NCBI GenBank assembly: GCA_049177215.1
Contig: CP185379.1
Location: 352,957 to 416,956, forward strand
Direction of reading: 5' to 3'
Origin: Candidatus Pollutiaquabacter aromativorans
GTDB lineage: Bacteria > Bacteroidota > Bacteroidia > AKYH767-A > 2013-40CM-41-45
Length of the DNA: 64,000 nucleotides
In this document: positions 31,001-50,992 of the stretch, in pieces
Layout: every line of letters begins with the position of its first letter
Position numbering within the stretch: the first letter of the stretch is position 1
Made by a program: the position numbers and the translations under genes
Notes under the pieces: model-generated
What the model saw: the letters and a program-made list of their open reading frames with translations, nothing else
What the model was told of the DNA's origin: nothing
Database searches by the model: none

Positions 31001-33637
31001 GCTATGCCGACGCTTGCTTGTTATGAGACCGCTACCTTCAACGGTAGCACCTGTCAGTGGGACGTAACGGGCACGCAGCCGGCACAGCCGACACTTGCTT
31101 GCTACGAGACGGCTTCCTTCAATAACACGACCTGTTCCTGGGACGTAACGGGCACTCAGCCGGCTATGCCGACCCTTGCTTGCTACGAGACCGCTACCTT
31201 CAATGGTACCACCTGTCAGTGGGACGTAACAGGCACGCAGCCGGCACAGCCGACGCTTGCTTGCTATGAGACCGCTACCTTCAACAACACGACCTGTTCC
31301 TGGGACGTAACGGGCACGCAGCCGGCACAGCCGACGCTTGCTTGCTACGAAACGGCTTCGTTCAACACCACGACCTGTTCCTGGGACGTAACGGGCACGC
31401 AGCCGGCACAGCCGACGCTTGCTTGCTATGAGACGGCTTCGTTCAACAACACGACCTGTTCCTGGGACGTAACGGGCACGCAGCCTGCAGCACCGACCGG
31501 TCTTGCTTGCTACGAGACGGCTTCGTTCAACTCTACTACCTGTCAGTGGGACGTAACGGGCACCCAGCCGGCTATGCCGACCCTGGCTTGCTACGAGACA
31601 GCTACCTTCAACAACACGACCTGTTCCTGGGACGTAACCGGAACGCCGCTTTCGGCTTCCTGTGTTGCATCTGATGCGGTTTGCTTCGGTGGACTCGGTT
31701 CCATCACGGTTAGCGCTTCGGGTGGTACGGCTCCGTATTCCGGAACCGGTACCTTTAACCTGGTTGCAGGTACCTATAACTACACGGTTACGGACAACGG
31801 TGGTTGTACGTCTTCCTGCTCTGCAACGATCGCCGAGCCGGCCAAAGTTGAGGCTTCCTCGATCACGTCCACTCCGTCCAACTGCGGTGGCAGCACGGGA
31901 ACCGCTACGGTAGTCGCTACCGGCGGTGACGGTAACTACAGCTACCTCTGGGCTCCGGCCGGCGGCACTTCCGCTTCGGCTACGGGTCTTGCTTCTGGCA
32001 GCTACACCGTGACCATCACCGATGGTAACGGTTGCACCGGCTCTGCTACGGTAGTAGTAGGCGGCGCTGGTTCTGGTCCTGATCCTGCAGGCGCAATCGC
32101 TGGTCCTGCCGGCGCTTGCCGCAGCACCACGGTAACGTACTCGATCGCTCCGGTTTCCGGTGCTTCGTCCTACATCTGGAGTCTCCCGGTTGGCGCTTCC
32201 GGTTCTTCGACCGGCACCAGCATCACGGTGACCTTCAGCTCTACCTATGGTGGTGGCTTCATCTGCGTAACCCCGACCAACGCTTGCGGCAACGGTACTC
32301 CTGCTTGCATCAACGTTCCGGTTCTCACGGTTAAGCCGACCACTCCTGGTCTGATCTCCGGCCCGAACCCTGTTTGCGGCCCGACCACCGCTACCTACTC
32401 GGTTGCTCCGGTTTCCGGCGCTACGAACTATGTATGGTCGGTCACCGGTACCGGTGTGTCGATCGTAAGCGGTAACGGAACCAACTCCGTACAGGTTAGC
32501 ATCCCGGCCGGCTTCGGTCAGGGTTCGATCTCTGTCTATGCTCAGAACTGCAAAGGCAACAGCCCGACCCGCAACCAGACGCTGACCGGCGTACCGACGC
32601 ACTCTTCGGCGCTCTTCGGTCCGATCTACAACTGTCCGAACACTTCGGCTTCGTTCTCGATCTCCGTTGTTCCGGGTACTGCAACGTACACCTGGTCCAT
32701 CACCGGCGACGCTTCCATCGGATCCAGCAGCGCTAACAGCTGCACGGTGAACTTCGGTCCGGCCTGGACCTCGGGTGTCCTGACGGTAACCACCAGCAGC
32801 ACTTGCGGTTCCTTCTCGCGTTCCTACACGCTCCGTTCCGTACCGACCCAGCCGGGTGGTATCACGGGTCAGGCCTCTGCCCTGTGTAACGCTACGGGTG
32901 TTTCGTACTCCATCGCAGCTGTAGCCGGTGCAACCGGTTACAACTGGACGGTTCCGGCCGGTGCTACCATCACCAGCGGTCAGGGTACTACCTCGATCAT
33001 GGTCAACTTCGGCACCTCTGCTGGTAACGTTTGCGTAACCGCAAGCAACTCCTGCGGATCGAGCGTAGCTCGTTGCCTGGCCGTTATCACGGTACCGGCT
33101 GCTCCTGCAGCCATCTCTGGTCCTGCCAGCGTATGTAAGTCGCAGACGGGTACGTATTCCATCAGCCCGGTTAGCGGTGCTACCTCTTATGTATGGTCGG
33201 TCACCGGTGGTGCTTCGATCGTACCGAGCGGCACCTCGGCTACTGTGAACTACAACTCCGCACTCAGCACTTCCGCTACCGTTCGCGTCAATGCAGTGAA
33301 CGCATGTGGTCTGAGCCAGCCGCGCACCCTGGCTGTTGCTGTGAACCTCGGCTGCCGCACCAGCGGCGAAGAGATGACCGCAGCCAGCGCGCTGACCGCT
33401 TACCCGAACCCGACCAACGGTCTGGTTACGATCAACTTCAACGCAGTTGCAGCTGAGCGTTACACGGTGAAAGTGGTTGACCTGCTCGGTAATGTGGTTG
33501 TCAGCGACCAGCTCAACGCTGTCGAAGGCAACAACATGAAGGAGCTGAACCTGACCAACGTCGCCAAAGGCATGTACCTCATGTCGCTGGAGACCGAGGG
33601 TGGTAATGTTCAAACCCTGCGCCTCATCGTCGAGTAA
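28092..33637 (+). CDS. large T9SS cargo protein (~1848 aa if the frames are joined). It has an N-terminal domain related to that of 45598..46881, SprB repeats, about 31 tandem 27/28-aa Cys2 repeats, Ig-like repeats, and a C-terminal type-A sorting domain. It is read as three ORFs because of two apparent +1 frameshifts (~30030, ~30870) inside the repeat array
   Basis: ORFs 28092..30047, 30025..31026 and 30848..33637 are in successive frames, and the same repeat peptide continues across each break. Signal peptide 'WLVAALLLLGWSGKVSA'. SprB repeat 'NCQGSATGSATVNVSGGTAPFTYSWAPSGG'. The C-terminal 'LTAYPNPTNGLVTINFNA...KGMYLMSLETEGGNVQTLRLIVE' is a Por_Secre_tail-type CTD. Confidence 0.8.
29126..31640 (+). 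repeat. about 31 near-identical head-to-tail copies of an 81-bp unit (84-bp variant with an extra Gly codon) encoding 'LACYETASFN(T/N/G/S)TTC(S/Q/V)WDVTGTQPA(Q/M/A)PT(G)'
   Basis: Period measured directly: 'tgctacgag' at 29131 and again at 29212. I counted the copies by hand from the three ORF translations (11 + 10 + 1 + 9). Sequence variation is confined to about 5 codon positions and recombines combinatorially among copies. Confidence 0.95.
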
Positions 33638-33839: not shown

Positions 33840-36800
33840 ATGTCACGCCTACCCTCCGGAAAGTCTGGTTCGTATTGCTTTGTGCGAACCCTGATTATTT
33901 TGTCTGTATATAGTGTTTTCTTTTTCGCGATCCGGGTGAATGCCCAGACCGCAAGCCAGTATACCTTTTCGACAGCAACCGGTGCTTCACTCACCACCAT
34001 GACGGGTTCCACCCTGATCATGGGTAGTAACCTGGACGATAGCGCCAGTACGACCATCAACATAGGATTCTCTTTTACGTTCGCCGGTACAGCCTATACG
34101 CAATTCTCCGTGAACTCGAACGGGCTAATGCGACTGGGTAGCACTGCTGTTACGAATGCCTGGCAGAATGGAATCACCACAGGGCCATTCCCCGCTTTAA
34201 TGCCCTTGTGGGATGACGGACATACCGGATCCAACGGTGGTGTTCGTTACCTGTTGACCGGTACAGCACCAAACCGGCAGCTCACGGTGGAGTGGACCAT
34301 TCGCAGTTATTCCGGAGAAACCGGCAATTACACCAAGACCTTCCAGGCCTGGCTGTTCGAGACTTCCAATGTGGTACAATACGTTTACGGCACCGGCACG
34401 GCTGCAACCAGCGCCAGTATCGGTATTGCAAGCAGCTCAACGGCCTATCAAAGTGTCAGCACGTCTACCAATACGGCTTCTACCACCACCCCGAACAACA
34501 GTGTAACCACCTGGGCAGGCAGCGGCAGAACGTATGTGTTCACGCCCCCCGTCATTCAGAATTGCAGTGGGACGCCTGCTGCAGGAACTGTCAGCGGGAC
34601 GAATGTGCTTTGTTCCGGTTTGACAACGATCCTGACTGCTAGCGGAGCTACGCCCACTTCCTTCGGTGGCATTTCTTATCAGTGGCAGGAGTCCGATGAT
34701 AACGGTGTAGGTGATCCCTGGGCAAGTGTTGTAGGAGGAAGCGGAGGCACGACGCTCGTCTATACCACACCGGCTTTGACGACCAGTCGATATTATCGAC
34801 TGCTTGTCAGTTGCTCGTTCAGTGGTTTGTCGGCAAGTACAACGGAGTACCTCGTAACCGTCAATCCGCGTCCTACCGTGACGGTATCGCCAACCACCTC
34901 GACGCTTTGCGCGGGGAATAGTGTTGTTCTGACGGCTTCCGGAGCAGATACCTATGCCTGGTCGCCTTCCACGGGTTTGAACGCGACGACCGGGGCTTCG
35001 GTGACCGCGACTCCAACTGTCAGTACTACCTACACGGTCACCGGTACCACGACCTCAAGCGGTTGTACCGCCACGGCAACATCGGCTATCAATACAACAG
35101 TCGGAATCAATGCAAGCGCTGGCGCCAATCCGGTGAATATATGCCCCGGTGGCGCCACCACGCTGAATGCTGTGGCCAACACCAGTACCTCCGGCTACAC
35201 ACTGGCTTCCATTCCGTACCAGTTATACCCGACAACCGGATTTACCACCATCACCTCCTGGACCGGGACCGCTGACGATGGATCAGCGGCAGTGACCTTA
35301 CCGTTTAATTGGTTCTTCTACGGAAACTCCTATACCAGTGCATTCATTGGTACCAACGGATATCTGATCTTCGGAACAACGTCAACAGCCTATCAGGCGG
35401 TTGCCATCCCTGCCACGGCGGCACCGAACAATTACATAGCACTCTGTTGGACCGATTTGAATCCGGGATCAGGAGGAACCATATCGTATGGAACGGTTGG
35501 TACGGCGCCGAACAGGGTGTTCGTGGTTGACTATAGCGGCGTACTTTTTTACAATGCCAGTGGAAGTATCGCGACCGGTCAGATCTGCCTGTTCGAAGAC
35601 GGCCATATTGAAATTCATGCTACCACCCTTGACCGGGGAACTTCTACCGCAGCCGCTGTCATGGGCATCGAGAATTCCGGAGGAACCGCCGGAACGGCCG
35701 TGACCGGCAGAAATGGCGGAACCTGGTCAGTGACGGCGCCGGAAGCCTGGTCATTTACGCCAGCCTATCCGGCATTCACGTATAGCTGGAGCCCCGCGAC
35801 CGGACTGAGTAACCCGAATATTGCCAACCCGGGTGTTACGGGTGTTGTAACGACTTCTTCTTATACAGTGACCGTCAGTGGAGGTGGAGGTTGTGCCGCT
35901 ACGGCCACGGCAACGATCATTACCGGTCAACCCTTTTCCGTTAGCGCGGCATCTTCCGCGAACAATTTCTGTTTTGGTGGTACGACGAACCTGACCGCCA
36001 ATGCGACCGGAGGTGGTGTCCCATATTCGTACTCCTGGTCAACGGGTGGCACAACCATCGGAACCACCGGAGCTTTAACGGTTGCACCGCCAGCCGGCAC
36101 AACAACCTACACAGTATCAGCATCCGATAATTGCGGCAATACCTCCAGCGCTACGGTGTCGGTTACGGTCATTGCTCCGCCTAACGTTGGTGCGACGGCA
36201 TCTTCCTCGCTCGTCTGCGGCAGCGGATCTGTGACCTTGAACGCAACGGGTGCCAATGGTTATTCCTGGGTGCCGGCGGATGAACTGAGTGTTCCCTTTG
36301 GCGCGACAGTAACCGCTTCGCCTTCCGTATCTACTTTGTATACGGTAACCGGAACGGATGCAGCCGGTTGTACTGCTACCGCTACGGTTCAATTGACCGT
36401 AGTTCCGGGTGTGACCCTGCAGGCTACCGCGACTCCTTCCAACCTATGTACTGGAACGAGTTCACAACTCAATGCGAACGCGACCCAGGAGGCGCCCTAT
36501 TCACTCGCTCAGGTTGCGTATCTGCCCTTATCGACCGCAGGATTTCAAACCATTACCTCCTGGACCTCGGCGGGTACCGGAAACGACGATTATTTCGGCC
36601 CGGTCGCGCTTCCGTTCAGCTTTAATTTCTTCGGGCAGAACAAGTCTCAGTTGTATATCGGATCGAACGGATTCATCACCTTCGGTACTCCCTCCACCGA
36701 TCCTTTTTCCCAATTGTTCCCGGATCCTGCACACCCGAATGATGTGGTGGCCTTGTGTTGGGGTGACCTCGACCCGGGCGCCGGTGGTACGGTGAAATAT

Positions 36801-39692
36801 GGTGTCGTAGGTACCGCTCCGAACCGGATCTTCGTTGTTGATCTGCAGTCGGTCCCGTTCTTTGGAATCGCTTCCGGCAGTAATGTGACCGGTCAGATTC
36901 ATCTATATGAAACCTCAGGCAGGATCGAACTTCATCTTGCGAGCGTACAGCATAACGGTTCAGGTGCCTTGAACGGCATGGGTATCGAAAATGCAAGCGG
37001 TACGCGGGCACATTATCCCTTGGGTCGTAATGGGGGTTTGATCACCTGGAACGTGATCAGTCCGGAAGCATGGCGATTCGACCGTTTGCCTTTCAGCTTG
37101 AATTATTCCTGGACGCCTGCATCCGGCCTGAATAGCAGCTCAATCGCCAATCCGGTTGCCGGTCCGCTCGCAGGTTCTGCGACCTATACGGTAACAGCCA
37201 CCGATAATTTCGGATGTACGGCGACCGCCAGTCTCAGCCTGTCGGTTGGTCAACCCTTGAACGTTCAGGCCGGCGCAACAGCAACCATACTCTGTCTGGG
37301 TAGCAATACCACGCTTCAGGCGATCATCAGCGGGGGAGGGGAGCCATATGGTATTACGTGGAAACAAGGCGTGACCACCATTGGCAATACCGCGGACCTG
37401 GTCGTTACACCTCCGTTGGGCACGACAATTTATACGGTTAGCGTTTCGGATGCATGTGGTGGAACCGGTAGTTCAACGGTTCAGGTGACCGTTCTCAACT
37501 CGCCCTCGGTATCCGTCACCAGCAGTGGAAGTCTGATTTGTGGATCCGGATCCGTTACGATGACCGCTTCCGGGGCCACCAGCTATGTGTGGAGTCCGTC
37601 CATTGGACTGAGTGCGACGACCGGCACAACCGTTATAGCTTCCCCGAATGGAACCACCACCTATACGGTAACCGGATCGATTTCCGGTTGTTCGGCAACT
37701 GCCACCCGTACGATCACGGTGGCGCCGGCTGTACAGCAGTTGGATCTTTCGGCCGATCAGATCAGCGGTTGTAGTCCGTTGACCACCAGCTTGCATGCTC
37801 AGGCCTGTTTCAGCGCGCTCACGAATTATAAGGTGGATTCCTCTTCGGCGGATTATGCTCCAACCAGTTCCGGCTTCGTTACGTTCAATGGTCGTGATGA
37901 CGGTTCCGTCGTGATCGCGCTTCCGTTTCCGTTCCGGTTCTTTGGTAATACCTATTCTTCGGCATACATCAGCACCAACGGATATCTCGGCTTTGGCAGT
38001 AGCTCCTCTGCGTACACCACCGCCACCATGCCTGCTTCGGGAGTGCCGAACAATTTCATTGCCCTCGTATGGAATGACATGATTCATTCGACCGTGAATT
38101 CTGGCGTGGATACCTTTACCGTTGGGTCGCCTGGTGCAAGGGCATTTGTTGTCCGCTTCAATGCCGGGGCCGTTTCTTTTTTTGACGGGACTACGTCATA
38201 CGGTTCGTTCGGCGGCAAGATCATCCTTCATGAAAGTTCCAATGCCATCGAGCTTCGGATCGACGCGATGAATATGGGAGCCTTGGCTACCCGGAATAAA
38301 GTCCTGGGTATCGAGAATTCGACGGGACTGCTCGCCTTTTCCGTTCCCGGAAAGAACAATACCAACTGGGTGCAATCCACTCCGATCACTTATTCCTTCA
38401 CACCCAGTTTGCAGTGTTCCGGTACGTCCGCGTTTATGTATGCCTGGAGTCCTTCAACGGGATTGAATGATCCCGCATCCGCCAACCCTGTATTGACTAA
38501 TCTGCTGTCGGGAACAACCTATACGGTTACGGCTACATCAAGCGACGGTTGCAGTCGGACTTCGACACTCAGCATCCAGGTCTACAATAACCCTCCTGTC
38601 CCCACGGTTACAACCACGGGTTCCACGGATCTCTGCTGGGATGGGGTCAATCCGTTGTCATCGGTCTTATTGACCGCAGATACAACCGGTAGTGGGCCGG
38701 GTGCATCGTTCATGTGGAATGATGTTTATGGAACGTCTTCCACCAGTTTGAATGTCACACCGGATGTGGTCATTCCTTCTCCCTATGGTTTCCAGGCAAT
38801 AGTTACTGACTTCAGAGGGTGTTCGTCAACCTCAACACCGGTCAGCGTCTCTACGGCCTTGTATCCGACGATCGCCTCGCTGAATCCGAGTTCGGGTTGT
38901 CCGGGAGATTCCATCGATGTGGCGGGCACTAATTTTTCGACAGTCGTCTCGGTGGATTTCTTCGGTGTGCCAGCAGGCTTCAGGATCGTGAATGCAAACC
39001 TCCTTCGGATCGAAGTTCCACCCGGCGCGCTGAGTGGTTCCATTAACCTTGCTACCAGCACCGGTTGTTCCGAATCGTCTTCCATGTCGTTTACTGTGAA
39101 TACCTGCGGCGGTTCGCTCCTGGACATGACCTTGCTGATCCAGGGTTATTATGACGGCGCGGGCGGTATGACCGGTACCTTGTACAATTCGGGAATTTCG
39201 TTCGATCCTACCGATTGTGAATTCCTGCATGTCTGCTTGATGGATGCCGGAACGCTGACGGAGACCGACTGTTTCGATGAAGTCCTGAAAACGAACGGCA
39301 GCCTGCAGATTTCGATTCCTGGCGGGTATGTGGGCTCTTCCTTCTACCTCAAGATCACGGGCCGAAACATTCTGGAAACCTGGACGACCGCCCCGGTTCA
39401 GATCGTCAGTCCGTTCACTGTACTTGATCTGACAACTGCAGCCAACACCGTCTTCGGTGACAACCAGGTTCAGGTTTCAACTGCACCGGCCCGTTGGGCA
39501 ATCTGGAGTGGCGATTTGAATCAGGACGACTTGATTGAGGCGACTGATTATAGTACCATGGAAAACGATGTGCAACAATTCCTATTCGGCTATGTGCCAT
39601 CTGACATTACCGGTGATGGAATCGTTGAGGCCTCGGATTATGCGCTAGTAGAGAACAACAGTTTGTTGTTCCTATTCTCAATAACCCCCTGA
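33840..39692 (+). CDS. giant secreted multi-repeat surface protein (1950 aa), paralog B, with the same module grammar and the same C-terminal module (a more diverged variant)
   Basis: Signal peptide 'LIILSVYSVFFFAIRVNAQ'. The N-terminal recurring module is 'FSFTFAGTAYTQFSVNSNGLMRLG...GTAPNRQLTVEWTI...QAWLFETSNVVQYVY'. SprB-like 'FCFGGTTNLTANATGGGVPYSYSWSTGG'. It ends 'WAIWSGDLNQDDLIEATDYSTMENDVQQFLFGYVPSDITGDGIVEASDYALVENNSLLFLFSITP'. Confidence 0.85.
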   Translation: MSRLPSGKSGSYCFVRTLIILSVYSVFFFAIRVNAQTASQYTFSTATGASLTTMTGSTLIMGSNLDDSASTTINIGFSFTFAGTAYTQFSVNSNGLMRLGSTAVTNAWQNGITTGPFPALMPLWDDGHTGSNGGVRYLLTGTAPNRQLTVEWTIRSYSGETGNYTKTFQAWLFETSNVVQYVYGTGTAATSASIGIASSSTAYQSVSTSTNTASTTTPNNSVTTWAGSGRTYVFTPPVIQNCSGTPAAGTVSGTNVLCSGLTTILTASGATPTSFGGISYQWQESDDNGVGDPWASVVGGSGGTTLVYTTPALTTSRYYRLLVSCSFSGLSASTTEYLVTVNPRPTVTVSPTTSTLCAGNSVVLTASGADTYAWSPSTGLNATTGASVTATPTVSTTYTVTGTTTSSGCTATATSAINTTVGINASAGANPVNICPGGATTLNAVANTSTSGYTLASIPYQLYPTTGFTTITSWTGTADDGSAAVTLPFNWFFYGNSYTSAFIGTNGYLIFGTTSTAYQAVAIPATAAPNNYIALCWTDLNPGSGGTISYGTVGTAPNRVFVVDYSGVLFYNASGSIATGQICLFEDGHIEIHATTLDRGTSTAAAVMGIENSGGTAGTAVTGRNGGTWSVTAPEAWSFTPAYPAFTYSWSPATGLSNPNIANPGVTGVVTTSSYTVTVSGGGGCAATATATIITGQPFSVSAASSANNFCFGGTTNLTANATGGGVPYSYSWSTGGTTIGTTGALTVAPPAGTTTYTVSASDNCGNTSSATVSVTVIAPPNVGATASSSLVCGSGSVTLNATGANGYSWVPADELSVPFGATVTASPSVSTLYTVTGTDAAGCTATATVQLTVVPGVTLQATATPSNLCTGTSSQLNANATQEAPYSLAQVAYLPLSTAGFQTITSWTSAGTGNDDYFGPVALPFSFNFFGQNKSQLYIGSNGFITFGTPSTDPFSQLFPDPAHPNDVVALCWGDLDPGAGGTVKYGVVGTAPNRIFVVDLQSVPFFGIASGSNVTGQIHLYETSGRIELHLASVQHNGSGALNGMGIENASGTRAHYPLGRNGGLITWNVISPEAWRFDRLPFSLNYSWTPASGLNSSSIANPVAGPLAGSATYTVTATDNFGCTATASLSLSVGQPLNVQAGATATILCLGSNTTLQAIISGGGEPYGITWKQGVTTIGNTADLVVTPPLGTTIYTVSVSDACGGTGSSTVQVTVLNSPSVSVTSSGSLICGSGSVTMTASGATSYVWSPSIGLSATTGTTVIASPNGTTTYTVTGSISGCSATATRTITVAPAVQQLDLSADQISGCSPLTTSLHAQACFSALTNYKVDSSSADYAPTSSGFVTFNGRDDGSVVIALPFPFRFFGNTYSSAYISTNGYLGFGSSSSAYTTATMPASGVPNNFIALVWNDMIHSTVNSGVDTFTVGSPGARAFVVRFNAGAVSFFDGTTSYGSFGGKIILHESSNAIELRIDAMNMGALATRNKVLGIENSTGLLAFSVPGKNNTNWVQSTPITYSFTPSLQCSGTSAFMYAWSPSTGLNDPASANPVLTNLLSGTTYTVTATSSDGCSRTSTLSIQVYNNPPVPTVTTTGSTDLCWDGVNPLSSVLLTADTTGSGPGASFMWNDVYGTSSTSLNVTPDVVIPSPYGFQAIVTDFRGCSSTSTPVSVSTALYPTIASLNPSSGCPGDSIDVAGTNFSTVVSVDFFGVPAGFRIVNANLLRIEVPPGALSGSINLATSTGCSESSSMSFTVNTCGGSLLDMTLLIQGYYDGAGGMTGTLYNSGISFDPTDCEFLHVCLMDAGTLTETDCFDEVLKTNGSLQISIPGGYVGSSFYLKITGRNILETWTTAPVQIVSPFTVLDLTTAANTVFGDNQVQVSTAPARWAIWSGDLNQDDLIEATDYSTMENDVQQFLFGYVPSDITGDGIVEASDYALVENNSLLFLFSITP

Positions 39693-39820: not shown

Positions 39821-42800
39821 ATGAACCGGAAACGCTACCCGATGAAGGCAGCCTGTAGCTGGCTGCTTGCTCTACTGCTCTTTTCTAACCTGGTCCAGGC
39901 ACAGCCTGCGAATACGTACACCTTTACAACCGGTACCGGTGTTTCTTTGGAGACGCTCAGCGCTCCGGTGGTGCTGGTGGGTTCCGGTGTAGATGATACT
40001 CCGGCATCTGCCGCTTCGGCCATCGGATTTTCATTCACCATCAACTCCAACAACTATTCGAATTTTTGGGTGAACGCAAACGGCCTGTTCGGTTTCGGAA
40101 CATCGCCGAGTACGTCGTACTCGAATTCAATTACAGCACCGCCAAGTTTCCCGGCCCTGATGCCCTGGTGGGATGACATGGGCACCGGTACAAACGGGAA
40201 CGTTCAGTACCAATTATTGGGAACATCGCCTAATCGGAAATTGGTTGTTGAATGGCGAGTTCGGAACATAGGAGAGACGGGCAACTATACCAAGACCTAT
40301 CAGCTCTGGTTGTTCGAAAGCAACTTTGCCATTCAATTCGTGTATGGGACAGGCACCGCCGGATCCTCGGCATCGATCGGCATGTCAACATCGGCTACCG
40401 AGTACCAGAGTGTTACGACCACATCGAATACCGCTTCGACGACAACTCCTGCCAATACCCAGTCCACATTTCCCGCATCCGGTCGGTATTATTTATTTAC
40501 GCCTGCCTCCTGTGCCGGAACACCCAGCCCGGGTAACACCCTTGCTTCTGCCAACCCGGTCTGCAGCGGCAGCGCTTTGACGCTATCGATGTCAACTCCT
40601 CCTTCCAGCATCGGCATCACCTACCGATGGCAGACTTCGCCGGATGGTTCGACCTGGACCAACGTAGCCGGTGCCGCTGGAAACAACGTTACCTTATCCG
40701 CGAACCCGACGGTTGCAACGTACTACCGTTGCCGTGTCACCTGTTCTGCTTCCGGCCTCAACGGCTTCTCAACGCCTTTGTTGGTGAATGTGGTGAATTG
40801 CTATAACATGCAGAATGGCTCTTTGTCCAACGTCTGTTCGGCCAGGTTTTATGATTCGGGAGGACTGGCCGCTGCTTATGCTAATGCGGAATCTTATACT
40901 CTTACCATTTATCCTACACCCGGAAATTTGCTTCGCGTGCAATTCAACTCCTTCGTCACCGAAAGCGGGTATGATTACTTGTCCATTTACAATGGCAATT
41001 CAACGGCCGCGCCTCTTTTGCTCAACACTTCCGGCTCCACCGTGCCCGGAACCTATACCTCTTCGGCCACTGATGGATCATTGACATTCCGGTTCACGTC
41101 CGACATCAGTATCACCTATGCCGGTTGGGATGCCTTATTGAGTTGTGTTTCGCTTCCTGTATGTAGTGGAACACCGACTGCCGGTACTATCAGTGGAACA
41201 TCCGGCCTGTGTGCAGGAGGAACGACAACCCTTACCGCCTCCGGATTTTCGTCCGGTGTTTCAGGGCTTTCGTTTCAATGGGAGGAGTCGGATGACAATG
41301 GCGTGGCTGATCCCTGGGCGAATGTCGTCGGTGGATCGGGTGCCAATACGAATAGCTATACCAGCCCGGCCCTGAGTGTTTCCAGGTATTACCGGATGCG
41401 GGTCACTTGTTCAAATGGAGGCGGTACTGCCACGACTTCCGGTTATTTGGTTACTGCTAATCCGCTTCCTACAGTGGCAATTGCTGCCAATCCGGGTACG
41501 ACCATTTGCGGACCGGGTGCGATTAACCTGAGCGCTTCCGGAGCTGACACCTACAACTGGTCACCTGCTTCCGGCTTGAACGCTACTACCGGTGCTTCAG
41601 TCACGGCCACCCTTTCGAGTTCTACCAGTTATACAGTTGTCGGTACGATCACTGCTACGGGGTGCACTGCGACACAAAGTGTTTCACTCAATTTGTTGCC
41701 GGGCTATTCGGTGAATGCGACGGCTAATCCGGTCAACATTTGTTCCGGTGGAAGCGCTCAACTCAACGCTGTTGCTCAAATGCCCTCAAGTTCCTATCTG
41801 TTGAATCCGATTTCTCCCGCATTGGTTTCCACCGCAGGATTCGCGACAGGCCCCGCGTCCGATGATGCGATCGTTGGCCCCATCACACTGCCCTTCAACT
41901 TCAATTTCTTCGGGTCACCGGAAGATTCGCTGTATATCTCCTCGAACGGTCATATCATATTTGGTAATTCGGCACCCGCGAGTCAATTGGCGGGCCTCAA
42001 CATACCGGATGCAACAGATCCCGATAACGTCATCGCGCTCTGCTGGGCCGACCTCAATCCGGGCTCTTCCGGTTCGGTCACCTATGGTACGGTGGGCACA
42101 GCGCCCAACAGGATCTTTGTGATCAGTTGGAACGCCGTACCGTTTTACCTGCAGTCCGGAAGCAACGTCACCGGTCAGATCCAATTGTACGAAGGTTCCA
42201 ATATTGTGGAGGTTCACATCAGCGTAATCAACCGGGGTGCATCGACCTCAAATACCGTTTTGGGGATTGAAAATGCTACCGGTTCAAGTGGACTTGCGCC
42301 CGCCAGTCGTAACGGCGGAACATGGTCGGTGAGCAGTCCGGAGGCCTGGCGATTTTCACCTTACGTTCCGGGTTATACCTATGCATGGACCCCTTCGACC
42401 GGACTCGATAATCCAACCATTCCGATGCCGATCGCCAGTGGAGTGTCAGGCACGACCGTTTATACCGTGACGGTTACGGCGGATGGTGTGTGCACGGCAA
42501 CGGCAACTGCCCTGGTGAACGAAGGAGTCGCACTGAGTGCTACGGCTTCCGCGCTTCCTGCTTCGGTATGCGAAGGGCAATCGACGCAACTGAGCGGGGC
42601 CGCTTCCGGTGGCGGGGAACCATTCGCCTATAGTTGGTCCGACGGCGTAACCGAAATCGGGACCACGCAATTGCTGACGATCACTCCCCCGGTTGGATCT
42701 TCCACCTATTACCTGACCGTTGCCGACGCCTGTGGGGGCAGCACGTCCACTACTGTTGTCGTCACCGCCCTTCCAGGGCCGGTACTTGCCCTGCAACCGG

Positions 42801-45415
42801 TTAGCGCGGTGTATTGCGGAACACCACTTGCGCTTACGGCATCTTCGGGCGGCGGAACAACCTTTGGCTGGTCGCCTGCAACGGGATTGAACGCTACCAC
42901 CGGCTCTTCTGTTAGTGCGAGTCCGGCGACCGCCACGACGTATACTGTCACCGCGACTGCTACTAATGGTTGTACGATTAGTGGTACTATTCCCATTACG
43001 ATCGGAACCCCGCTGACGGTTAGTGTCGGCGCGGACACTACACAGGGATGTGCTCCCTTCGGCTCTGTACTGCGGGCTTGTGTCAATCCGACCTTCAATA
43101 CCTATACGTTGGATTCTGCTGCCACCGATTATTCACCAGTCGGATCAACCGCTTTCATTACACTGTCCAGTGCAGATGATGGCGATGCGGCGGTCAATCT
43201 GCCGTTCCCGTTCAACTTCTATGGCGTGAATTACACCTCGATACGCGTTGGATCGAATGGCTACATCGGGATGGGAACCACCCCGGTGACTTCCCTGGCC
43301 AATCAGGCGCTTCCTTCAGCCACGGCGCCTAACGGAATCATCGCCTTGTGTTGGGACGATCTGCTTCACAGCGGACTGGCCACGGGCATCGATACATTTA
43401 CGGTGGGAACCGCGCCCAATAGAAAGTTTGTCGTCCGGTATAACGCAGGAGCGGTCGCGTTCTACAACATCGGATCACAAACCGGTTCCTTGGGCGGTAA
43501 GATCGTTTTGCATGAAGGAACCGGAGTCATCGAAGTCAGGATCGATGTGATGAATAAAGGGGTACGGATCGATAACCAGACGCTTGGAATCGAAGATGCG
43601 GCCGGATTGGCGGCTGTAACGCCTCCGGGAAAGAACAATCTGGATTGGCTTCAATCGACACCACGAACCTATCGGTTCACTCCTGCTGCACAACAGTGCA
43701 ACAACACCGGTATCTCGTTTGACTGGACACCGGCTGCCACCCTGCATGCAACAAACCTGGACACCGCTGTTATCACAGGACTGAACAGCACAACCATTTT
43801 TACCGTAACCGCGTCGAACGCTTCGGGATGCAGTGCTCAGGATACGGTGCAGATATTCGTATCGCCACAAGCTCCTACACCGGTGATTTCGAGCAGCGGA
43901 CCGCTTTCCTTCTGCCCGGGCGGAAGCGTGACGTTAACTTCTTCCAGTACGGCTTTCCCGAATTACTGGAGTACCGGCGAAACAACGAATTCGATAACAG
44001 TAAATACTACCCAGACCGTTTCGGTTTACAGTTCGGATGCTTTTTGTCCTTCCGGCCGGGCTTATGTCGATGTCGTGCGATTCGATACGGTTCCGCCGCT
44101 GATCAACGTCTCCGGCGGCGGACTCGCGCTATGTTCGGGCAACCGTGATCTGCTCTCCGATGGCGCACCGCTCTTCGTAGCCTGGAGTTGGAGCACCGCC
44201 GAAACCTCTCAGCAAATCACGATCATGAATCCCGGGACCTATGCAGTGGCCGCTACGGATACCAATGGCTGTGTAACGCATGCGGAGATAACGTTCACGG
44301 CAGGTGTCGCTCCGGTGGCCCCTGTGATCTCCACCTTGAGTTCGCTCAGTGTATGCAACAATGAATACGTGACGATCGATTCCGATATTCCGGATGGGCT
44401 CACCTGGTTCCCGACGTTTGACAATACACCGTCGATCGCCTACAACCTTTCACCTCCGGGAGTATACGACTTCTACGTTTCGCGCGACTCCCTGGGTTGT
44501 ACCTCGGAGTCCAATCACCTGGTCTTTACGGTCAATCCGACTCCGGAGGTATATTTCTTCCTGCCGGCGGACTCCGCCTGTGTGGGCGATGTCATCACCC
44601 TCAACGGTTCGGGGTTGAGCAATGTGTCTTCTATCAGCTTTAATGGCACTCCGGTCAGCGTATTCTCGGTGCTCGATGATTACACCATTCAGGTTACTGT
44701 TCCAGTCGGCGCTACGTCGGGAGGCATCACCCTGACCGATGGTTCCACCGGTTGCGCGGGTGTAAGTCCGCTGTTTTCGATTAAGGAAGTTTGCGGAGTC
44801 AGTGTAAACCTGAAGGTTTGGTTGCAGGGGTATTGTTTGCCAACTCCGTTCGGAGGTAGTATGATGCCGGTCTGGACGCAACAAATGCGATCAGATTTAG
44901 GCAATGGCAATCCGGGTTCTCCAGCAGGCACGGAAACCGATTTGGTCTATGTCGGACTCTACGACGACAATCATGTACTGCAATTTGAAGATTCGGTCAT
45001 GATCATGACGGATGGAACCGGTAGGATCGATCTCCCGGCGGCTTTCAATGGCAATAGTTATTATCTCCTGATCAAGCATCGTAGTCATGTCGCAATCCGC
45101 AGCGCCGGCTTGGTACTTATGAGCCCGGTAGTGACCTATGATTTCACGCTGTCAGAAAGTCAAGCGGATAATAACGGATCAAACTTCGGTATGACCCAGC
45201 TCTCCAATGGCGAGTGGGCGATGTGGGTAGGTGATGTTACCCAGGACGGATTTGTCGGGGGTGACGACGTGGGAAGTGTCGACAATGACAACTTGCTCGG
45301 GATTTATCTGGAGTATAGAAATTCGGATGTGACCGGGGATGGCTTCGTTGGTGGAGATGATGTCGGTGCGGTTGACAACAATAATCTCTTGGGGGTCTAC
45401 TATTTCTATCCCTGA
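39821..45415 (+). CDS. giant secreted multi-repeat surface protein (1864 aa), paralog C; the last ~560 aa are about 70% identical to paralog A
   Basis: Signal peptide 'CSWLLALLLFSNLVQAQ'. It has the same N-terminal module as B ('FSFTINSNNYSNFWVNANGLFGFG...GTSPNRKLVVEWRV'). The C-terminus is 'WAMWVGDVTQDGFVGGDDVGSVDNDNLLGIYLEYRNSDVTGDGFVGGDDVGAVDNNNLLGVYYFYP'. Confidence 0.85.
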   Translation: MNRKRYPMKAACSWLLALLLFSNLVQAQPANTYTFTTGTGVSLETLSAPVVLVGSGVDDTPASAASAIGFSFTINSNNYSNFWVNANGLFGFGTSPSTSYSNSITAPPSFPALMPWWDDMGTGTNGNVQYQLLGTSPNRKLVVEWRVRNIGETGNYTKTYQLWLFESNFAIQFVYGTGTAGSSASIGMSTSATEYQSVTTTSNTASTTTPANTQSTFPASGRYYLFTPASCAGTPSPGNTLASANPVCSGSALTLSMSTPPSSIGITYRWQTSPDGSTWTNVAGAAGNNVTLSANPTVATYYRCRVTCSASGLNGFSTPLLVNVVNCYNMQNGSLSNVCSARFYDSGGLAAAYANAESYTLTIYPTPGNLLRVQFNSFVTESGYDYLSIYNGNSTAAPLLLNTSGSTVPGTYTSSATDGSLTFRFTSDISITYAGWDALLSCVSLPVCSGTPTAGTISGTSGLCAGGTTTLTASGFSSGVSGLSFQWEESDDNGVADPWANVVGGSGANTNSYTSPALSVSRYYRMRVTCSNGGGTATTSGYLVTANPLPTVAIAANPGTTICGPGAINLSASGADTYNWSPASGLNATTGASVTATLSSSTSYTVVGTITATGCTATQSVSLNLLPGYSVNATANPVNICSGGSAQLNAVAQMPSSSYLLNPISPALVSTAGFATGPASDDAIVGPITLPFNFNFFGSPEDSLYISSNGHIIFGNSAPASQLAGLNIPDATDPDNVIALCWADLNPGSSGSVTYGTVGTAPNRIFVISWNAVPFYLQSGSNVTGQIQLYEGSNIVEVHISVINRGASTSNTVLGIENATGSSGLAPASRNGGTWSVSSPEAWRFSPYVPGYTYAWTPSTGLDNPTIPMPIASGVSGTTVYTVTVTADGVCTATATALVNEGVALSATASALPASVCEGQSTQLSGAASGGGEPFAYSWSDGVTEIGTTQLLTITPPVGSSTYYLTVADACGGSTSTTVVVTALPGPVLALQPVSAVYCGTPLALTASSGGGTTFGWSPATGLNATTGSSVSASPATATTYTVTATATNGCTISGTIPITIGTPLTVSVGADTTQGCAPFGSVLRACVNPTFNTYTLDSAATDYSPVGSTAFITLSSADDGDAAVNLPFPFNFYGVNYTSIRVGSNGYIGMGTTPVTSLANQALPSATAPNGIIALCWDDLLHSGLATGIDTFTVGTAPNRKFVVRYNAGAVAFYNIGSQTGSLGGKIVLHEGTGVIEVRIDVMNKGVRIDNQTLGIEDAAGLAAVTPPGKNNLDWLQSTPRTYRFTPAAQQCNNTGISFDWTPAATLHATNLDTAVITGLNSTTIFTVTASNASGCSAQDTVQIFVSPQAPTPVISSSGPLSFCPGGSVTLTSSSTAFPNYWSTGETTNSITVNTTQTVSVYSSDAFCPSGRAYVDVVRFDTVPPLINVSGGGLALCSGNRDLLSDGAPLFVAWSWSTAETSQQITIMNPGTYAVAATDTNGCVTHAEITFTAGVAPVAPVISTLSSLSVCNNEYVTIDSDIPDGLTWFPTFDNTPSIAYNLSPPGVYDFYVSRDSLGCTSESNHLVFTVNPTPEVYFFLPADSACVGDVITLNGSGLSNVSSISFNGTPVSVFSVLDDYTIQVTVPVGATSGGITLTDGSTGCAGVSPLFSIKEVCGVSVNLKVWLQGYCLPTPFGGSMMPVWTQQMRSDLGNGNPGSPAGTETDLVYVGLYDDNHVLQFEDSVMIMTDGTGRIDLPAAFNGNSYYLLIKHRSHVAIRSAGLVLMSPVVTYDFTLSESQADNNGSNFGMTQLSNGEWAMWVGDVTQDGFVGGDDVGSVDNDNLLGIYLEYRNSDVTGDGFVGGDDVGAVDNNNLLGVYYFYP

Positions 45416-45597: not shown

Positions 45598-46881
45598 ATG
45601 TTAAATTTATCGCAAATACGAATTACTATGAGCAATGCCAAGAGGGCGAGTTTGATCGCTATTTTAATGACCTGTCTTAATCTGGGCAGTTTGTTTGCGC
45701 AGGATCCAGGCTTCTCGGTGTCGGTTGGAAACGCCCATTATATCGCACCCAACTTGTTTGAGTTTGATATCATGATCCAGTCCACTGGTTCACCGGCGAC
45801 GTTCAACTTCCGTACTTTCCAGGGTGGATTATTTATTAATCCTTCGTGGAAAGGAGCAGGAACCATTACCGCCAGTTATGTCTCCGGATCCACTCAGTTG
45901 AGCGGGCTTGGTTACAATGGTTCGATTCAGTGGAATCCTTCCGACAACTTCATCAACCTTTCGGTCAATACCGGAGTCCGTAACGGCGGCTCGCCTCAGG
46001 CAACGGTCATTGGTACTTCGCCGGTTCGTGTCATGACGATGCGGTTGTTCAGCACCGCCAATTTCAATTGCTCGACTTCGCCTAACCTTCAGTTTAATTA
46101 CAACCAATCTGTTACTCCGCTTCGGTTGCGTTCCGCTGTATCGTGGAGAACGGCCAACCCGGATGTCAATTACAACCTGCATTACCCGGGTCGGACTTTT
46201 GGCGGAACCGCAGTATTCAACGGCGAGACCTGGTCGCTGTCGGATGCAGATGGACGATCGCCTGTTAACAGCGCGGCCAACCCGTCGTCCTGTCCTTTGC
46301 AGATGAACCTGGTGACCTTCATCCAGGCATTTGTCAATCCTTCTACCGGCTTGATGGATAATTCAGGTTCTGGCCTGTTGAACGCGCTCGGCGAATCACC
46401 CAATTCCATGGACGTTGATACCATTACGGTCACCCTGGTGAACTCTTCCACCCTTGCCGATGTAGAGTCGCAGAAGGTGATTTTGAAATCAGACGGGTCA
46501 TCGCTGACCTATTTTACCGGTTCTGCAATTGGTACGAGTTGTTACATCCGCGTGAATCACCGGAATTCGCTCGAAACCTGGAGCGCGGGTCCTGTGAACA
46601 TGGCTGCAAATACAACCTATAATTTCTCCAGTAATCAGAATCAAGCCTACGGCGACAACCTCGTACAGGTAGCCGGTGTTTGGGCCATGTATTCCGGTGA
46701 TGTCAATCAGGATGGTTTCATCGGTGGTGATGACGTTGGCGCGGTAGATAATGATAACCTGGCTGGTTTGTTCTTCACGTATACGACCAGTGACATCAAT
46801 GGTGATTTGTTTGTGGGTGGCGATGATGTCGGCGTAGTGGATAACAACAACCTGGCTGGCGTCTACTTGCTCCGCCCCTGA
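45598..46881 (+). CDS. short paralog D (427 aa): signal peptide, a ~150-aa N-terminal domain shared with the 28092 protein, and the family C-terminal module with twin dockerin-like loops
   Basis: The likely true start is 'MSNAKRASLIAILMTCLNLGSLFAQ' at 45628. The C-terminal half 'SCYIRVNHRNSLETWS...VWAMYSGDVNQDGFIGGDDVGAVDNDNLAGLFFTYTTSDINGDLFVGGDDVGVVDNNNLAGVYLLRP' aligns with the A/B/C C-termini. Confidence 0.8.
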   Translation: MLNLSQIRITMSNAKRASLIAILMTCLNLGSLFAQDPGFSVSVGNAHYIAPNLFEFDIMIQSTGSPATFNFRTFQGGLFINPSWKGAGTITASYVSGSTQLSGLGYNGSIQWNPSDNFINLSVNTGVRNGGSPQATVIGTSPVRVMTMRLFSTANFNCSTSPNLQFNYNQSVTPLRLRSAVSWRTANPDVNYNLHYPGRTFGGTAVFNGETWSLSDADGRSPVNSAANPSSCPLQMNLVTFIQAFVNPSTGLMDNSGSGLLNALGESPNSMDVDTITVTLVNSSTLADVESQKVILKSDGSSLTYFTGSAIGTSCYIRVNHRNSLETWSAGPVNMAANTTYNFSSNQNQAYGDNLVQVAGVWAMYSGDVNQDGFIGGDDVGAVDNDNLAGLFFTYTTSDINGDLFVGGDDVGVVDNNNLAGVYLLRP

Positions 46882-46913
46882 TGAAAAAGTAAATCCCCAC
46901 GAGAATATCAAAA

Positions 46914-46947
46914 GCCTGCCAGAGGTTCTTCTGGCAGGCTTTTTTAT
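46914..46947 (+). terminator. intrinsic terminator after paralog D
   Basis: Perfect stem 'gcctgccag'(46914-46922) / 'ctggcaggc'(46931-46939), followed by 'ttttttatttgg'. Confidence 0.7.
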
Positions 46948-47428: not shown

Positions 47429-50400
47429 TCAGACCGTCTCTTCCATTTCCGTCAGATCCACCGGCACGACCTGCGTGACACCGGTCTCGACCATGGTGAT
47501 GCCGTACATGATGTCGGTGGCGGCCATGGTGCGCTTGTTGTGCGTGATGATGATGAACTGCGAGTCCTTGGAGAACTTCCGGATGATGTTGTTGAACTTG
47601 TCGATGTTGGCGTCGTCGAGCGGCGCGTCCACTTCGTCAAAGATGCAGAACGGAGCCGGCTTCAGCAGGTAGATGCCGAACAGGAGCGCGGTCGCGGTGA
47701 GGGTCTTTTCTCCACCCGACAACTGGGAGATCGACAAGGGGCGCTTGCCTTTCGGTTTGGCCACGATCTGGACGTCCGAATCCGTGGGATTGTCCGGATT
47801 GAGCAGGACCAGGTCGCAATCGTCGTCCTCGGTAAACAGGGAACGGAAAACGCGAATGAAATTTTCCCGGATGGAGTGGAAGGCCGTCATGAAGTTCTCG
47901 CGGGCCGTCTTCTCGATCTCTTCGATGGTCTGCAAGAGTGATTCCTTGGCCTTGATCAGATCGTCCTTCTGGGTGGTGATGAAGGTGTGGCGTTCCTGGA
48001 TCTCGTTATACGCTTCAACCGCCATGGGGTTGATCGGACCGTACGTGTCCAGCTGGTGTTTCTGCTTGGCGACTTTTTCCCGCAACACCTCTTCCGTCCA
48101 GTCGGGTGAAGGTTCGCGTTCGAGGATGTCGTTGATGTCGATGTTGAATTCGACCGACAGGCGCTCCTTGAGCGAGTTGAGCTGGATCTTCAATTCGGTC
48201 GTACGTTCCTTGATGGCCTGAGCCAACTGGTCGCACTGCTCGCGCTGGTGACGGATCTGCCGGATGCGGTTCTCCAGTTCGTCGATCTCGCCGCGCGAAC
48301 GGTAGAATTCGGTTTCGACGAGGCTGACCGATTTCTCGAGCTCTTCCTTCTCGGCATAGAGTTCCAGCAATTGTCCGTCGAAATCGGTGGACGATTGGAG
48401 CAACTCCCGGATCTGTTCCTGGATGTAATCCAATTCGGCCACATTGGCCGTGATGTTGCGTTGCAGGTTGCCTTCCAGTTCGACCTTGTACCCGTGATCC
48501 CGGATGATGCCGGCGATCTTGTTCTGCTGCTGGATGCAATGGATGTTGTGCTGGTTGTATTCCGTACCGGCACGGTTCATCTCGTCGGTCAGCGTGTTGA
48601 ACTCGGTTTGCAGGGCCGACAGATGGCCGGTGACCTCATCAAACCGCACCCGGAGCTGCAGGATGTGCTCCTGGTAGCTCAGGTTGTCCTGCTGCAGGGT
48701 GTTGTCGATCTCGTGCAACTGGGCATTCAGGTTGTCGAGCAGTTTCTGGTTGTTGTCGATACCGGCTTGCAGGTGTTCCGTCTTGTGGTGCAACGAAGCG
48801 AACTCCTGTACCGCCCGGTTCAGCTCTTGCTGGAAGTGCTTTTTCCGGCCGGTGAGTTCGTCGCGTTCGCGCCGGGTAGCCTGTAAAGCCGCCTGCAGAC
48901 GATCACGCTCCTGGCGGTGGGTCTCCAGGGAGGCGGTCAATTGTTCGATCTCTTTGGAAAGCGTATCCAGATGCTTGGCGCGTCCGATGCGCTTTCCGTC
49001 GAAGAGGCCGACCGAGCCGCCGGAAAGGGCGTGGCGGGTACGGCAGTATTTGCCGTTGCGGGAAATGAAGATGCGGTCCTCCTGGCTTTCACGCAGGAAG
49101 GGTGTGCGGTCCTCGTCTTCCACGACGATGTATACGTTGCGCAGGAGGTGATTGCAAAGGGCCTGGTAGCGTGGCTCTACGTCGAGGATGGAGAGGGCAG
49201 GGATGGTGCCTTGCGGGCCGTTGGAATCGGTAGAGGCGCTTCCTTCGAAATTTTGGAGGATGAAGAAATTCGCGCGGCCTTTCGCGGCTTGTGCCAGCAG
49301 GTTAACCGCCTGGCTGGCGGCTTCAATATCCTCGATCACGAAATAGTTCATGAACGGATCGAGGTAATTTTCAATTGCCGTCTTGAACTCGGCCTGGCAG
49401 CTCAGGATTTCCGAGAACAGGGGAGCGCGAAGTGCGTCCGGCGCGTTCTTGCGCAGGTAACGCAGCGATTCCGGATAACCCTCGAGGTTCTCGACGAGGC
49501 TCTTGGTGAGGTTGAATTCATTCTGGCGGGCGTCCAGCTTACGACCCTCGGCCATGAGCGACTCATTCGCCTTTTTCAATTCTTCTTCGTAACGCGTCAG
49601 GTCGGCGCCGATCTGTACTTCGCGTTCAAGCAGCGAATTCAACTCCTGTTCCCGGTTGTCTTTGTTGAGGCGGCTCTGGTCGGTATCGGAGCTGATGCGT
49701 CCGAGTTCCTGCTCTTTGTGGCTGGTGTCGGAGCCCAGTCGTTCGATCTCCTTCTGAAGGGATTCTTTCCGCGCCTGGGTGACCGCGAGCGTTTTCTCCG
49801 TTTCATGCATCGCCGTCTGGATCGACTGCGATTCGGTGGTGTAGCGGTGGATGTCGCTCTTCATTTCGTCGTGGCGGGAACGCACGACGTCGAGCGCGGT
49901 TTTCATTTCCTGCAACTGTGCCTGGAGCTGGTCAAGCAGCGATTCCTCCTGCAAACGATCGGTTTCCGACTGGCGGATCTGGTCCTGAGTCGTCTGCAGA
50001 TTGGCGCGATCGGAAGAGATCTGCTGCGTCAGGGTCTGCTCCTTGTCCTGGAGGTACTTCAGTTTTTCATTACTGACCTTCTTGTCGTTTTCCTGAGAGC
50101 GGATCGTGTCGACTTTCAGATTGAGTTTCTTTTGTGACTCCGTCAGTTCCTTCTCGCGATCGAGTGCGAGCAGTTTCTTTTGCTGTAGTTCGGCTTCACT
50201 GGTATCCAGTTGGGTATCCAGCGCGACCTTTTGTTCCACCTGCTGGACTTCCTGCTGCTGCAGTTCGTCGAATGTCTGCTTGCTGCCGGACAAGGTGAAA
50301 ACCGCCAGTTCGGTACTCAGTTCTTTGTATTGTTCCTTGAGCCGGTAGTAACGCTCGGTTTTCTTTGATTGCGATTCGAGCGATTTCATGTTCCGCTCGA

Positions 50401-50992
50401 TCTCGAACAACAGGTCGTTGACCCGGTTGAGGTCGCCTTCGGTATCCTCGAGTTTCTGGAAGGTCTGCTTCTTACGGATCTTGTACTTCGAGATGCCGGC
50501 AGCTTCCTCGAGGAGATTCTTGATCGCGTTATTCTTATCGTTGAGGATCTCGTCGACCATCTTCAATTCGATGATGGCGTAGGAGTCCGAACCGATACCC
50601 GTGTCCAGGAAAAGTTCGGTAATGTCCTTGAGACGACACGTAACCCCGTTGAGCAGGTATTCGCTTTCGCCTTCGCGGTAATAGCGGCGGGATATCGTGA
50701 CGGTGGAATACTCCGTCGGGAGGATATTCTTGGTGTTTTCAAATGTCAGGGAGACTTCGGCGACGTTCGCGGCTTTCCGGCTCTTGGTGCCGTTGAAAAT
50801 GATGTTCTCCATCTTTTCAGAGCGCAGCATCCGCGTCTTCTGCTCGCCCAGTACCCAACGGATGGCATCCACCACGTTGGATTTGCCGCTACCGTTGGGA
50901 CCTACGATCGAAGTGACCCCCTTGTCGAAGTGGATGGTCACCTTCTCGCCGAAACTCTTAAATCCCTTGATTTCTAGTGTTGTAAGACGCAT
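47429..50992 (-). CDS. smc: chromosome segregation protein SMC
   Basis: 1187 aa. The N-terminal Walker A region is '[44 protein letters not shown]'. Long coiled-coil and hinge regions follow. The C-terminal signature/Walker B region is '[39 protein letters not shown]'. Confidence 0.92.
   Translation of the reverse strand: [1187 protein letters not shown]

Follow-up and report, generated by a model that had tools for sequence, protein, structure and literature searches.

The closest described counterpart of the arrangement reported here is the clostridial and ruminococcal cellulosome, which is built from cohesin heads and dockerin tails. Related features are found in the SprB/SprF system of Flavobacterium, where cargo of the type IX secretion system (T9SS) with a type-B C-terminal domain (CTD) is encoded alongside a cognate PorP/SprF-like partner, and in fibrillar adhesins with their N-terminal tip, repeat stalk and C-terminal anchor. 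Reports on Bacteroidetes have already described dockerin-type modules there while recognisable cohesins were scarce or absent (PMC6487960; PMC10266427). In one of them, 8.8 % of the dockerins are assigned to Bacteroidetes versus 1.7 % of the cohesins (PMC6487960). We analysed a stretch of 64,000 nucleotides from Candidatus Pollutiaquabacter aromativorans (contig CP185379.1), which is called the window here and whose own coordinates are used throughout. The window contains a same-strand gene cluster that comprises, in this order, a giant gene (18328-28011), gene E, two further giant genes (33840-39692 and 39821-45415) and, in the last position, gene D. The original prediction stated that one N-terminal domain, which we call the head, is connected to two different C-terminal modules in D and in the 28092 protein encoded by E. 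As stated, this observation represents ordinary modularity. Behind it, a new assembly of the cohesin-dockerin type that is tied to the T9SS is plausible.

The protein encoded by gene D consists of a signal peptide, a predicted cohesin-like head, a clade-specific extension, a presumed beta-sandwich module and a dockerin-like tail. The corresponding features are:

45598 to 46881, + strand: gene D, an open reading frame (ORF) of 427 aa with matches to the head and tail hidden Markov models (HMMs)
45700 to 46110, + strand: head core of D (aa 35-171), all-beta and predicted to be cohesin-like; family matches cover head positions ~2-137
46111 to 46302, + strand: D-clade extension of the head (aa 172-235) with the motifs LRLRS..SWR, YPGRT and DADGxSP
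46303 to 46677, + strand: beta-rich module ahead of the tail (aa 236-360), which aligns with the C-terminal part of the giants encoded at 18328, 33840 and 39821
46678 to 46878, + strand: dockerin-like tail of D (aa 361-427), two repeats, matched by the tail HMM

D indeed joins the head to a dockerin-like module that is common to its giant neighbours. The true start of D is probably the second methionine (Met11, 45628), from which a 24-residue Sec-type signal peptide, MSNAKRASLIAILMTCLNLGSLFA, followed by QDP, is obtained with cleavage between LFA and QD. D had no entry in the assembly index.

Gene E encodes a signal peptide followed by a head, a SprB domain, approximately 31 repeats of 27 aa, SprB/Ig domains, five PKD_6 domains and a type-A CTD:

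28092 to 33637, + strand: gene E, ~1847 aa once two 1-nt insertions are removed, present here as three ORFs
28176 to 28628, + strand: divergent head of E (aa 29-179), predicted to be cohesin-like, 30-37 bits with the family HMM
29139 to 31646, + strand: tandem array forming the stalk, 30.8 copies of a near-perfect coding repeat of 81 bp
33383 to 33634, + strand: type-A T9SS CTD of E, matched by Por_Secre_tail (PF18962) and by a local CTD HMM

The SprB domain, the five PKD_6 domains and the Por_Secre_tail CTD of E were confirmed by Pfam, the latter scoring 55.8 bits (cut-off 27) over residues 568-642 of a scanned segment of 645 residues. As sequenced, E is divided into the ORFs 28092-30047, 30025-31026 and 30848-33637, with two single-base insertions between them. 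Both insertions are located inside the array. The first one, at ~30026 (30020-30030), reads 'gcaCatgccg' where other array units have gcacagccg or gctatgccg, and the second one, at ~30872 (30868-30875), reads 'accGttc' where accttc is expected. These frameshifts are probably assembly errors in the repeat, but E may also be a recent pseudogene. An orthologue (L010:5285-9610) is intact and encodes head and CTD in a single ORF of 1442 aa. Thus, the architecture of E is real. The E orthologues in the loci L001 and L014 are likewise split, but elsewhere than in the window. The earlier description of E as a head joined via repeats to a canonical type-A CTD was therefore right about the modules but not about a single ORF, since three are present here. 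Each 27-aa unit of the stalk (ACYETASFNxTTCxWDVTGTQPAxPTL) contains two cysteines. In L001 the stalk is formed by units of ~38 aa (ACDTYTWSVNGQTYTASGTYT...) in place of the 27-aa unit; thus, the stalk repeats of E orthologues were swapped while head and CTD were retained. Opposite to E, antisense ORFs of 299-915 aa (28695-30026, 29977-30876 and 30866-33613, - strand) were observed which are rich in Arg, Gly and Ser and look like by-products of repeat and composition rather than genes.

Like cellulosomal proteins, the proteins described here combine predicted cohesin-like beta-sandwich heads with C-terminal tails that have a duplicated Ca-loop, internal symmetry and a preceding beta-rich module (compare the X-module of type II), and the genes of the putative partners are clustered. 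D has the architecture of an adaptor scaffoldin and E that of an anchoring scaffoldin, with its head on a cell-anchored stalk. In contrast to the cellulosome, the proteins occur in Gram-negative hosts (Bacteroidota and Ignavibacteriota), a T9SS type-A CTD takes the place of an SLH or sortase anchor, a single head per protein is usual in place of arrays, and the tails end in a conserved proline. The heads have no detectable sequence similarity to Pfam Cohesin. Moreover, the cargo would consist of giant Ig/NIDO/CUB/GEVED or Kelch proteins, and no glycoside hydrolases were seen. With SprB/SprF the locus shares large adhesin-like cargo with a special C-terminal module, Ig_7 domains on the giants and a dedicated partner gene immediately downstream. 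However, the module is of the dockerin type and not CHU_C, and the partner is a soluble head+CTD protein and not an outer-membrane beta-barrel. Finally, with its head, 31 repeats of 27 aa plus SprB and PKD_6 domains, and CTD anchor, E fits the layout of a fibrillar adhesin when the two insertions are taken as artefacts. Unlike in fibrillar adhesins, its tip seems to recognise a partner encoded next door, instead of or besides an external ligand.

The relationship between the heads of D and E was investigated at several levels. Both N-terminal sequences that had been quoted for D and E were found as stated. BLASTP aligned 26 residues of the two heads with an E-value of 0.009. Smith-Waterman alignment yielded z-scores of 2.9-3.4, with 7-12 of 1000 shuffled sequences reaching the observed score, and hhalign of two tiny profiles (2 versus 3 sequences) gave 3.7 %. 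This pairwise similarity is marginal and too weak to decide homology; deep profiles were used instead. The marginal pairwise statistics are also what would favor a mere chance or compositional likeness of Thr/Ser/Gly-rich beta proteins. A family HMM was built from 184 domain copies, none of which came from E or its relatives. The E head scored 36.9 bits against this HMM, whereas 2000 shuffled versions reached a mean of -2.1 bits (standard deviation 2.1) and a maximum of 12.5 bits, and the reversed E head scored -1.9 bits. An E orthologue (P0002) reached 48.7 bits. Scanned in all six frames, the whole window yielded the head domain only in D, with 245.9 bits, and in E, with 30.2 bits. Alignment of the D clade (6 sequences) with the E clade (4 sequences) by hhalign gave 89 % (E 2.2e-6, 122 columns), and the E clade aligned with the 184-copy family at 98.8 % (E 8.2e-17, 130 columns). 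The E-clade orthologues from L010 and L014 retain the EFD motif of the family and bridge the gap between D and E, and the predicted structures of both heads share strand order and top fold match. Judged by the profile HMM and hhalign statistics, the heads of D and E are thus homologous and belong to one domain family, as the original prediction had proposed, and chance likeness is refuted, with next to no probability left to it. The comparison with shuffled controls, which had been named as decisive, was won clearly at the profile level and only marginally at the pairwise level.

The conserved core of the head comprises ~135 aa (D residues ~35-171). The ~150 aa originally given hence described a shared domain, but one with a shorter core, which is prolonged to residue ~235 in the D clade. 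The heads of D and E are only ~20 % identical, each lies within its own conserved lineage, and consequently the D/E arrangement is old and no recent swap. The idea of a natural domain-swap experiment within one locus has to be given up, since the two heads form separate orthologous lineages and E followed by D is found in many metagenome-assembled genomes (MAGs).

An exhaustive HMMER search with D and one close relative as query retrieved 310 cluster representatives of the head family at E<=1e-3. Two earlier word-indexed homologue searches had yielded just 1 and 2 relatives. The conserved motif core of the head consists of N-D/C, EFD, Q-G, NGGT and R-R. In 144 of 152 family proteins the head starts within the first 60 residues, and 23 of the 152 contain 2-4 head copies. 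In D and E it begins at aa 35 and aa 29, respectively, and directly follows the signal peptide. None of the models in the library copies of Pfam and NCBIfam that were searched covers the head. A weak match of D to Phage_TTP_15 (E 0.025) was below the cut-off and was dismissed.

The structure of the D head predicted by AlphaFold 2 from a 47-row alignment was all-beta with a predicted local distance difference test (pLDDT) score of 79.6 and a predicted template modelling (TM) score of 0.80. The pLDDT was 82-96 across most of the core (aa 35-171). In the extension (to residue ~235), where conservation is confined to the D clade, model confidence was lower. A Foldseek search of the PDB with the D head resulted in 31 matches at E<=1e-3, mostly cohesins of types I, II and III, among them 5lxv_A (E 1.3e-5), 4wi0_A, 3ghp_A and 4dh2_A with TM-scores of 0.45-0.56 by target. 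Minor matches were a few carbohydrate-binding modules (CBMs) of the CBM3 type and one CnaA-like CLIPPER domain (9ifr). For the E head, which was modelled with a pLDDT of 71.8, the top match was again cohesin 5lxv_A (E 6.5e-4). Structure prediction, suggested originally as a check, hence placed the same cohesin first for both heads. The head fold is therefore predicted to be cohesin-like. We call it a cohesin/CBM-like jelly roll because CBM3, CBM2 and CnaA-like sandwiches also occur in the match lists. A CLIPPER/CnaA-like reading of the head was compared with the literature, and CLIPPER was judged to be a minor fold neighbour.

Two other functions of the head have to be considered in view of these fold lists. 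The first is that of an adhesive or carbohydrate-binding tip (CBM3/CBM2-like) for an external ligand, with the CTD and the dockerin-like module serving as alternative devices for anchoring or export. The matches to CBM3b', Cel9 CBM3c and CBM2, especially for E, agree with such a function, and so does the fact that the head forms the N-terminal tip in proteins built like fibrillar adhesins. However, the fold matches of D are overwhelmingly cohesins, and the gene pairing described below adds further points which make us regard an adhesive tip as rather unlikely. The second is a ligand-free structural beta-sandwich, i.e. an Ig-like or CnaA-like cap or stalk, whose gene neighbourhood would reflect tandem duplication and co-regulation. 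The presence of the CLIPPER domain in the fold lists, the proteins with several head copies and the fact that surface-protein genes commonly cluster are compatible with this idea, whereas the strict N-terminal position of the head and its conserved motif core, which suggests a functional surface, speak against it. Nor would it account for a pairing that is directional, class-specific and kept across two phyla. A purely structural head is thus improbable.

A beta-rich module and a tail of ~66 residues close the chain of D, of the three giants and of many members of the head family. In the giants the tails were located as follows:

18328 to 28011, + strand: giant of 3227 aa; its dockerin-like tail (27808 to 28008) ends 180 nt before the head domain of E
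33840 to 39692, + strand: giant of 1950 aa; its dockerin-like tail (39492 to 39689) is of another subtype (DDLIEATDY / DGIVEASDY)
39821 to 45415, + strand: giant of 1864 aa; its dockerin-like tail (45212 to 45412) ends 288 nt before the head domain of D

The tail is composed of two near-identical repeats, each of which contains a 12-residue loop, for example D-V-N-Q-D-G-x-V-D-x-x-D. Positions 1, 5 and 12 of this Ca-loop, all of them Asp, are invariant in both repeats of a 15-tail alignment that includes D. In D the loop motifs are DVNQDGFIGGDD and DINGDLFVGGDD, and the terminal residue is a proline. The D tail has, in its sequence, the two tandem segments of ~22 residues that define a dockerin, each with a 12-residue EF-hand-like Ca loop of the pattern D1, N/D3, D5, D12 ahead of a stretch that favours a helix. 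The profile of the 15 tails best matched solved dockerins (6kg9_A with E 9.8e-6, 4dh2_B, 2vn6_B, 5lxv_B, 4fl4_A, 1daq_A and others); all except two of the 17 distinct sequences found at E<1e-3 were dockerin-containing chains. Pfam Dockerin_1 (PF00404) matched 12 of the 15 tails at E<=0.1 and exceeded its gathering cut-off of 22.9 bits in the relatives P0010 (28.3 bits), P0014 (29.2 bits) and P0015 (26.5 bits). By these profile matches, the shared C-terminal module is of the dockerin type. The beta-rich module of D (aa 236-360) had no Pfam match; it is placed like an X-module, a resemblance of position only. In the 15-tail alignment the last residue of the protein, or one adjoining it, is a near-invariant proline (46876-46878 in D). 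Dockerins do not usually have such a proline, and it may play a part in recognition. Two tail subtypes occur in the locus, DGFxGGDDVG on the 18328 and 39821 proteins and on D, and DDLIEATDY / DGIVEASDY on the 33840 protein. Since the heads of D and E also represent two subtypes, the pairs may be specific.

The giants carry Sec signal peptides and Ig_7 ('CHU_C associated'), NIDO, CUB, GEVED and PKD-like domains. For D and the three giants no CTD was detected by Pfam or by the local CTD HMM, and neither a CHU_C/type-B CTD nor a type-A CTD was found among the domains of the giants. Their dockerin-like tail takes the place in which one would look for a T9SS signal. In other Bacteroidota proteins, a type-B CTD would be located where the giants have the dockerin-like tail. 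The position of Ig_7 in the giants thus puts the tail in the position of an address, a point in favor of an adhesive tip with two alternative anchors.

The distribution of both C-terminal modules was determined for 150 head representatives. Pfam annotated Por_Secre_tail in 47 and Dockerin_1 in 9 of them, and PKD_6, Ig_7 and SprB were among the other domains found. With the local HMMs 54 proteins ended with a CTD, 31 with a dockerin-like tail and none with both, the remaining ones being mostly fragments. Consequently, the CTD-or-dockerin ending is a family-wide dichotomy which is wider than this locus, and the question raised earlier as to whether other genomes carry the head with the same two endings can be answered positively. 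The mutual exclusion of CTD and tail would also be expected for an adhesive tip with either anchor.

The key indication of a functional link between heads and tails came from gene order. A genome scan for the D clade gave 21 loci, all from MAGs (19 labelled as Bacteroidota lineages and 2 as Ignavibacteriaceae). A D orthologue with 97 % identity was present in L002. The D-like gene directly followed a CTD-ending gene in 13 loci, in 5 of which a dockerin-tailed giant was located further upstream. Wherever the N-terminus of the CTD protein was available (window, L001, L010 and L014), it was a divergent E-type head. The order of giant tail and E was kept in L001, L010 and L014, and E was followed by D in at least 10 MAG loci. 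In L021 and L022, which belong to Ignavibacteriaceae MAGs and hence lie outside Bacteroidota, a head+CTD protein of ~433 aa comes after a dockerin-tailed one. For short head+CTD proteins, three contigs were examined independently, and all three had a dockerin-tailed gene immediately upstream, which in one case encodes a Kelch beta-propeller protein. On one metagenome contig two separate pairs of a dockerin-tailed and a head(+CTD) protein were noticed (L024:5544-9905 and L024:16196-19396). In the first pair the upstream gene encodes a Kelch beta-propeller protein of 1454 aa; cargo types are therefore diverse.

For the main clade, 77 metagenome loci were evaluated, which offered 66 testable cases. 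In 41 of these, the head was preceded on the same strand by the end of a dockerin-like tail, compared to 4.2 expected pairs (binomial 2e-32). The gap between tail and head domain was 115-554 nt with a median of 181 nt. Such an upstream tail was present for 13 of 15 head+CTD proteins versus 2 of 13 head+dockerin proteins. A three-level chain of tail, head-tail and head-CTD was found in L030, whereas the chains of L088 and L095 were partial. The window fits the pairing twice, with the 18328 tail preceding the E head and the 39821 tail preceding the D head at the distances listed above. Neither the class difference in upstream tails nor the chains are explained by an adhesive tip.

Given the cohesin-like fold predicted for the head and the location of head genes downstream of tails, head and tail look like binding partners. 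The predicted fold, the tail chemistry, the exclusive endings and the directional pairing together make a docking system the simplest account. According to this model, which in our judgement has an even chance of being correct, the head is a cohesin-like receptor, CTD-less cargo with dockerin-like tails docks onto T9SS-anchored stalks, and D acts as an adaptor. Homology of the heads, the dockerin-type sequence of the tails, the exclusive endings and the conserved pairing are directly supported. From the models and the gene order we infer the cohesin fold, the binding of head and tail, and which head takes which tail. E would be exported and held at the outer membrane by its type-A T9SS CTD, which would present its head on top of a long repeat stalk, and the tail of the giant 18328, encoded just upstream, would dock on this head. 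The head of D would take the tail of the giant 39821, also encoded just upstream, while the tail of D would plug into another head. D is regarded as a small adaptor since it possesses both head and tail. More generally, the anchors would be the head+CTD proteins, while D and other proteins with head and tail would serve as adaptors. The outcome would be a cellulosome-style hierarchy of cargo, adaptor and anchor, displaying adhesin-like proteins and not enzymes.

Several observations weigh against the docking model. No match to Pfam Cohesin (PF00963) was obtained for D at E<=1 or for 32 heads at E<=10, and the head profile had no sequence match in the PDB at E<=10. The Foldseek TM-scores were moderate. 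For the E head, the match was weaker than for D, the list mixed cohesins with CBM3, CBM2 and CnaA-like beta-sandwiches, and the alignment behind the model was dominated by the D-type family. The tail of D itself had no Dockerin_1 match at E<=1 or E<=0.1, its 'GGDDVG' variant being too divergent for this model. With respect to gene order, the 77 metagenome loci that contributed the 41 pairs are not fully independent, with 86 distinct head sequences among them, and within the D clade D comes after E, which is the reverse of the usual order of cargo and receptor. Gene adjacency moreover gives a functional link and not the nature of that link. Finally, docking leaves the crossing of the outer membrane by the CTD-less giants without explanation.

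The last point is addressed by a variant in which the dockerin-like tail recruits the T9SS CTD of its partner. After Sec export, the giants would bind in the periplasm to the head of the small or stalk-like CTD protein whose gene follows theirs, and this partner would take them through the T9SS and display them on the surface, resulting in piggyback secretion and non-covalent anchoring. We consider this variant unlikely. If it were true, it would account for the arrival of the CTD-less giants at the surface, and the orphan dockerins of Bacteroidota and Ignavibacteriota would have their missing partner in this cohesin-like family. It also bears on the original notion of one head being sent to two C-terminal addresses. 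Two endings do exist. However, with a cohesin-like fold predicted for the head and a pairing of tail and head that exceeds chance, the dockerin-like module is probably no mere second address. The address idea may hold in an altered form, with the tail recruiting a CTD that is supplied by another protein.

The surroundings of the cluster were inspected as well. Downstream of D a terminator-like element was identified:

46910 to 46943, + strand: hairpin with a 15-bp stem followed by a T-run, 29 nt past the stop codon of D

By its sequence and position, this hairpin likely terminates the whole + strand cluster. The next gene (47429-50992) is convergent and was labelled SMC-like by eye from its translation. 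Upstream of the cluster, a T9SS type-A CTD protein of 519 aa without a head domain is encoded at 13897-15456 (- strand), next to polysaccharide-biosynthesis genes (sugar transferase, polysaccharide deacetylase).

A search of the full-text literature for dockerin together with T9SS or type IX secretion revealed, by title and abstract, no description of such a pairing. One of the papers on dockerin and T9SS reports, in its passages on dockerins, only Pfam dockerin hits in Bacteroidota genomes. Unlike for the orphan dockerins of Bacteroidetes described so far, a candidate partner is named here by fold prediction and gene pairing. This candidate is a large family without a model in the searched copies of Pfam and NCBIfam, and it is usually fused to a T9SS anchor. 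If the proposed binding is true, cohesin-dockerin assembly would reach beyond Gram-positive cellulosomes to the T9SS-dependent display of giant adhesin-like proteins by Gram-negative bacteria. It would also hint at a route to the surface for CTD-less proteins and would provide a new modular docking pair for engineering.

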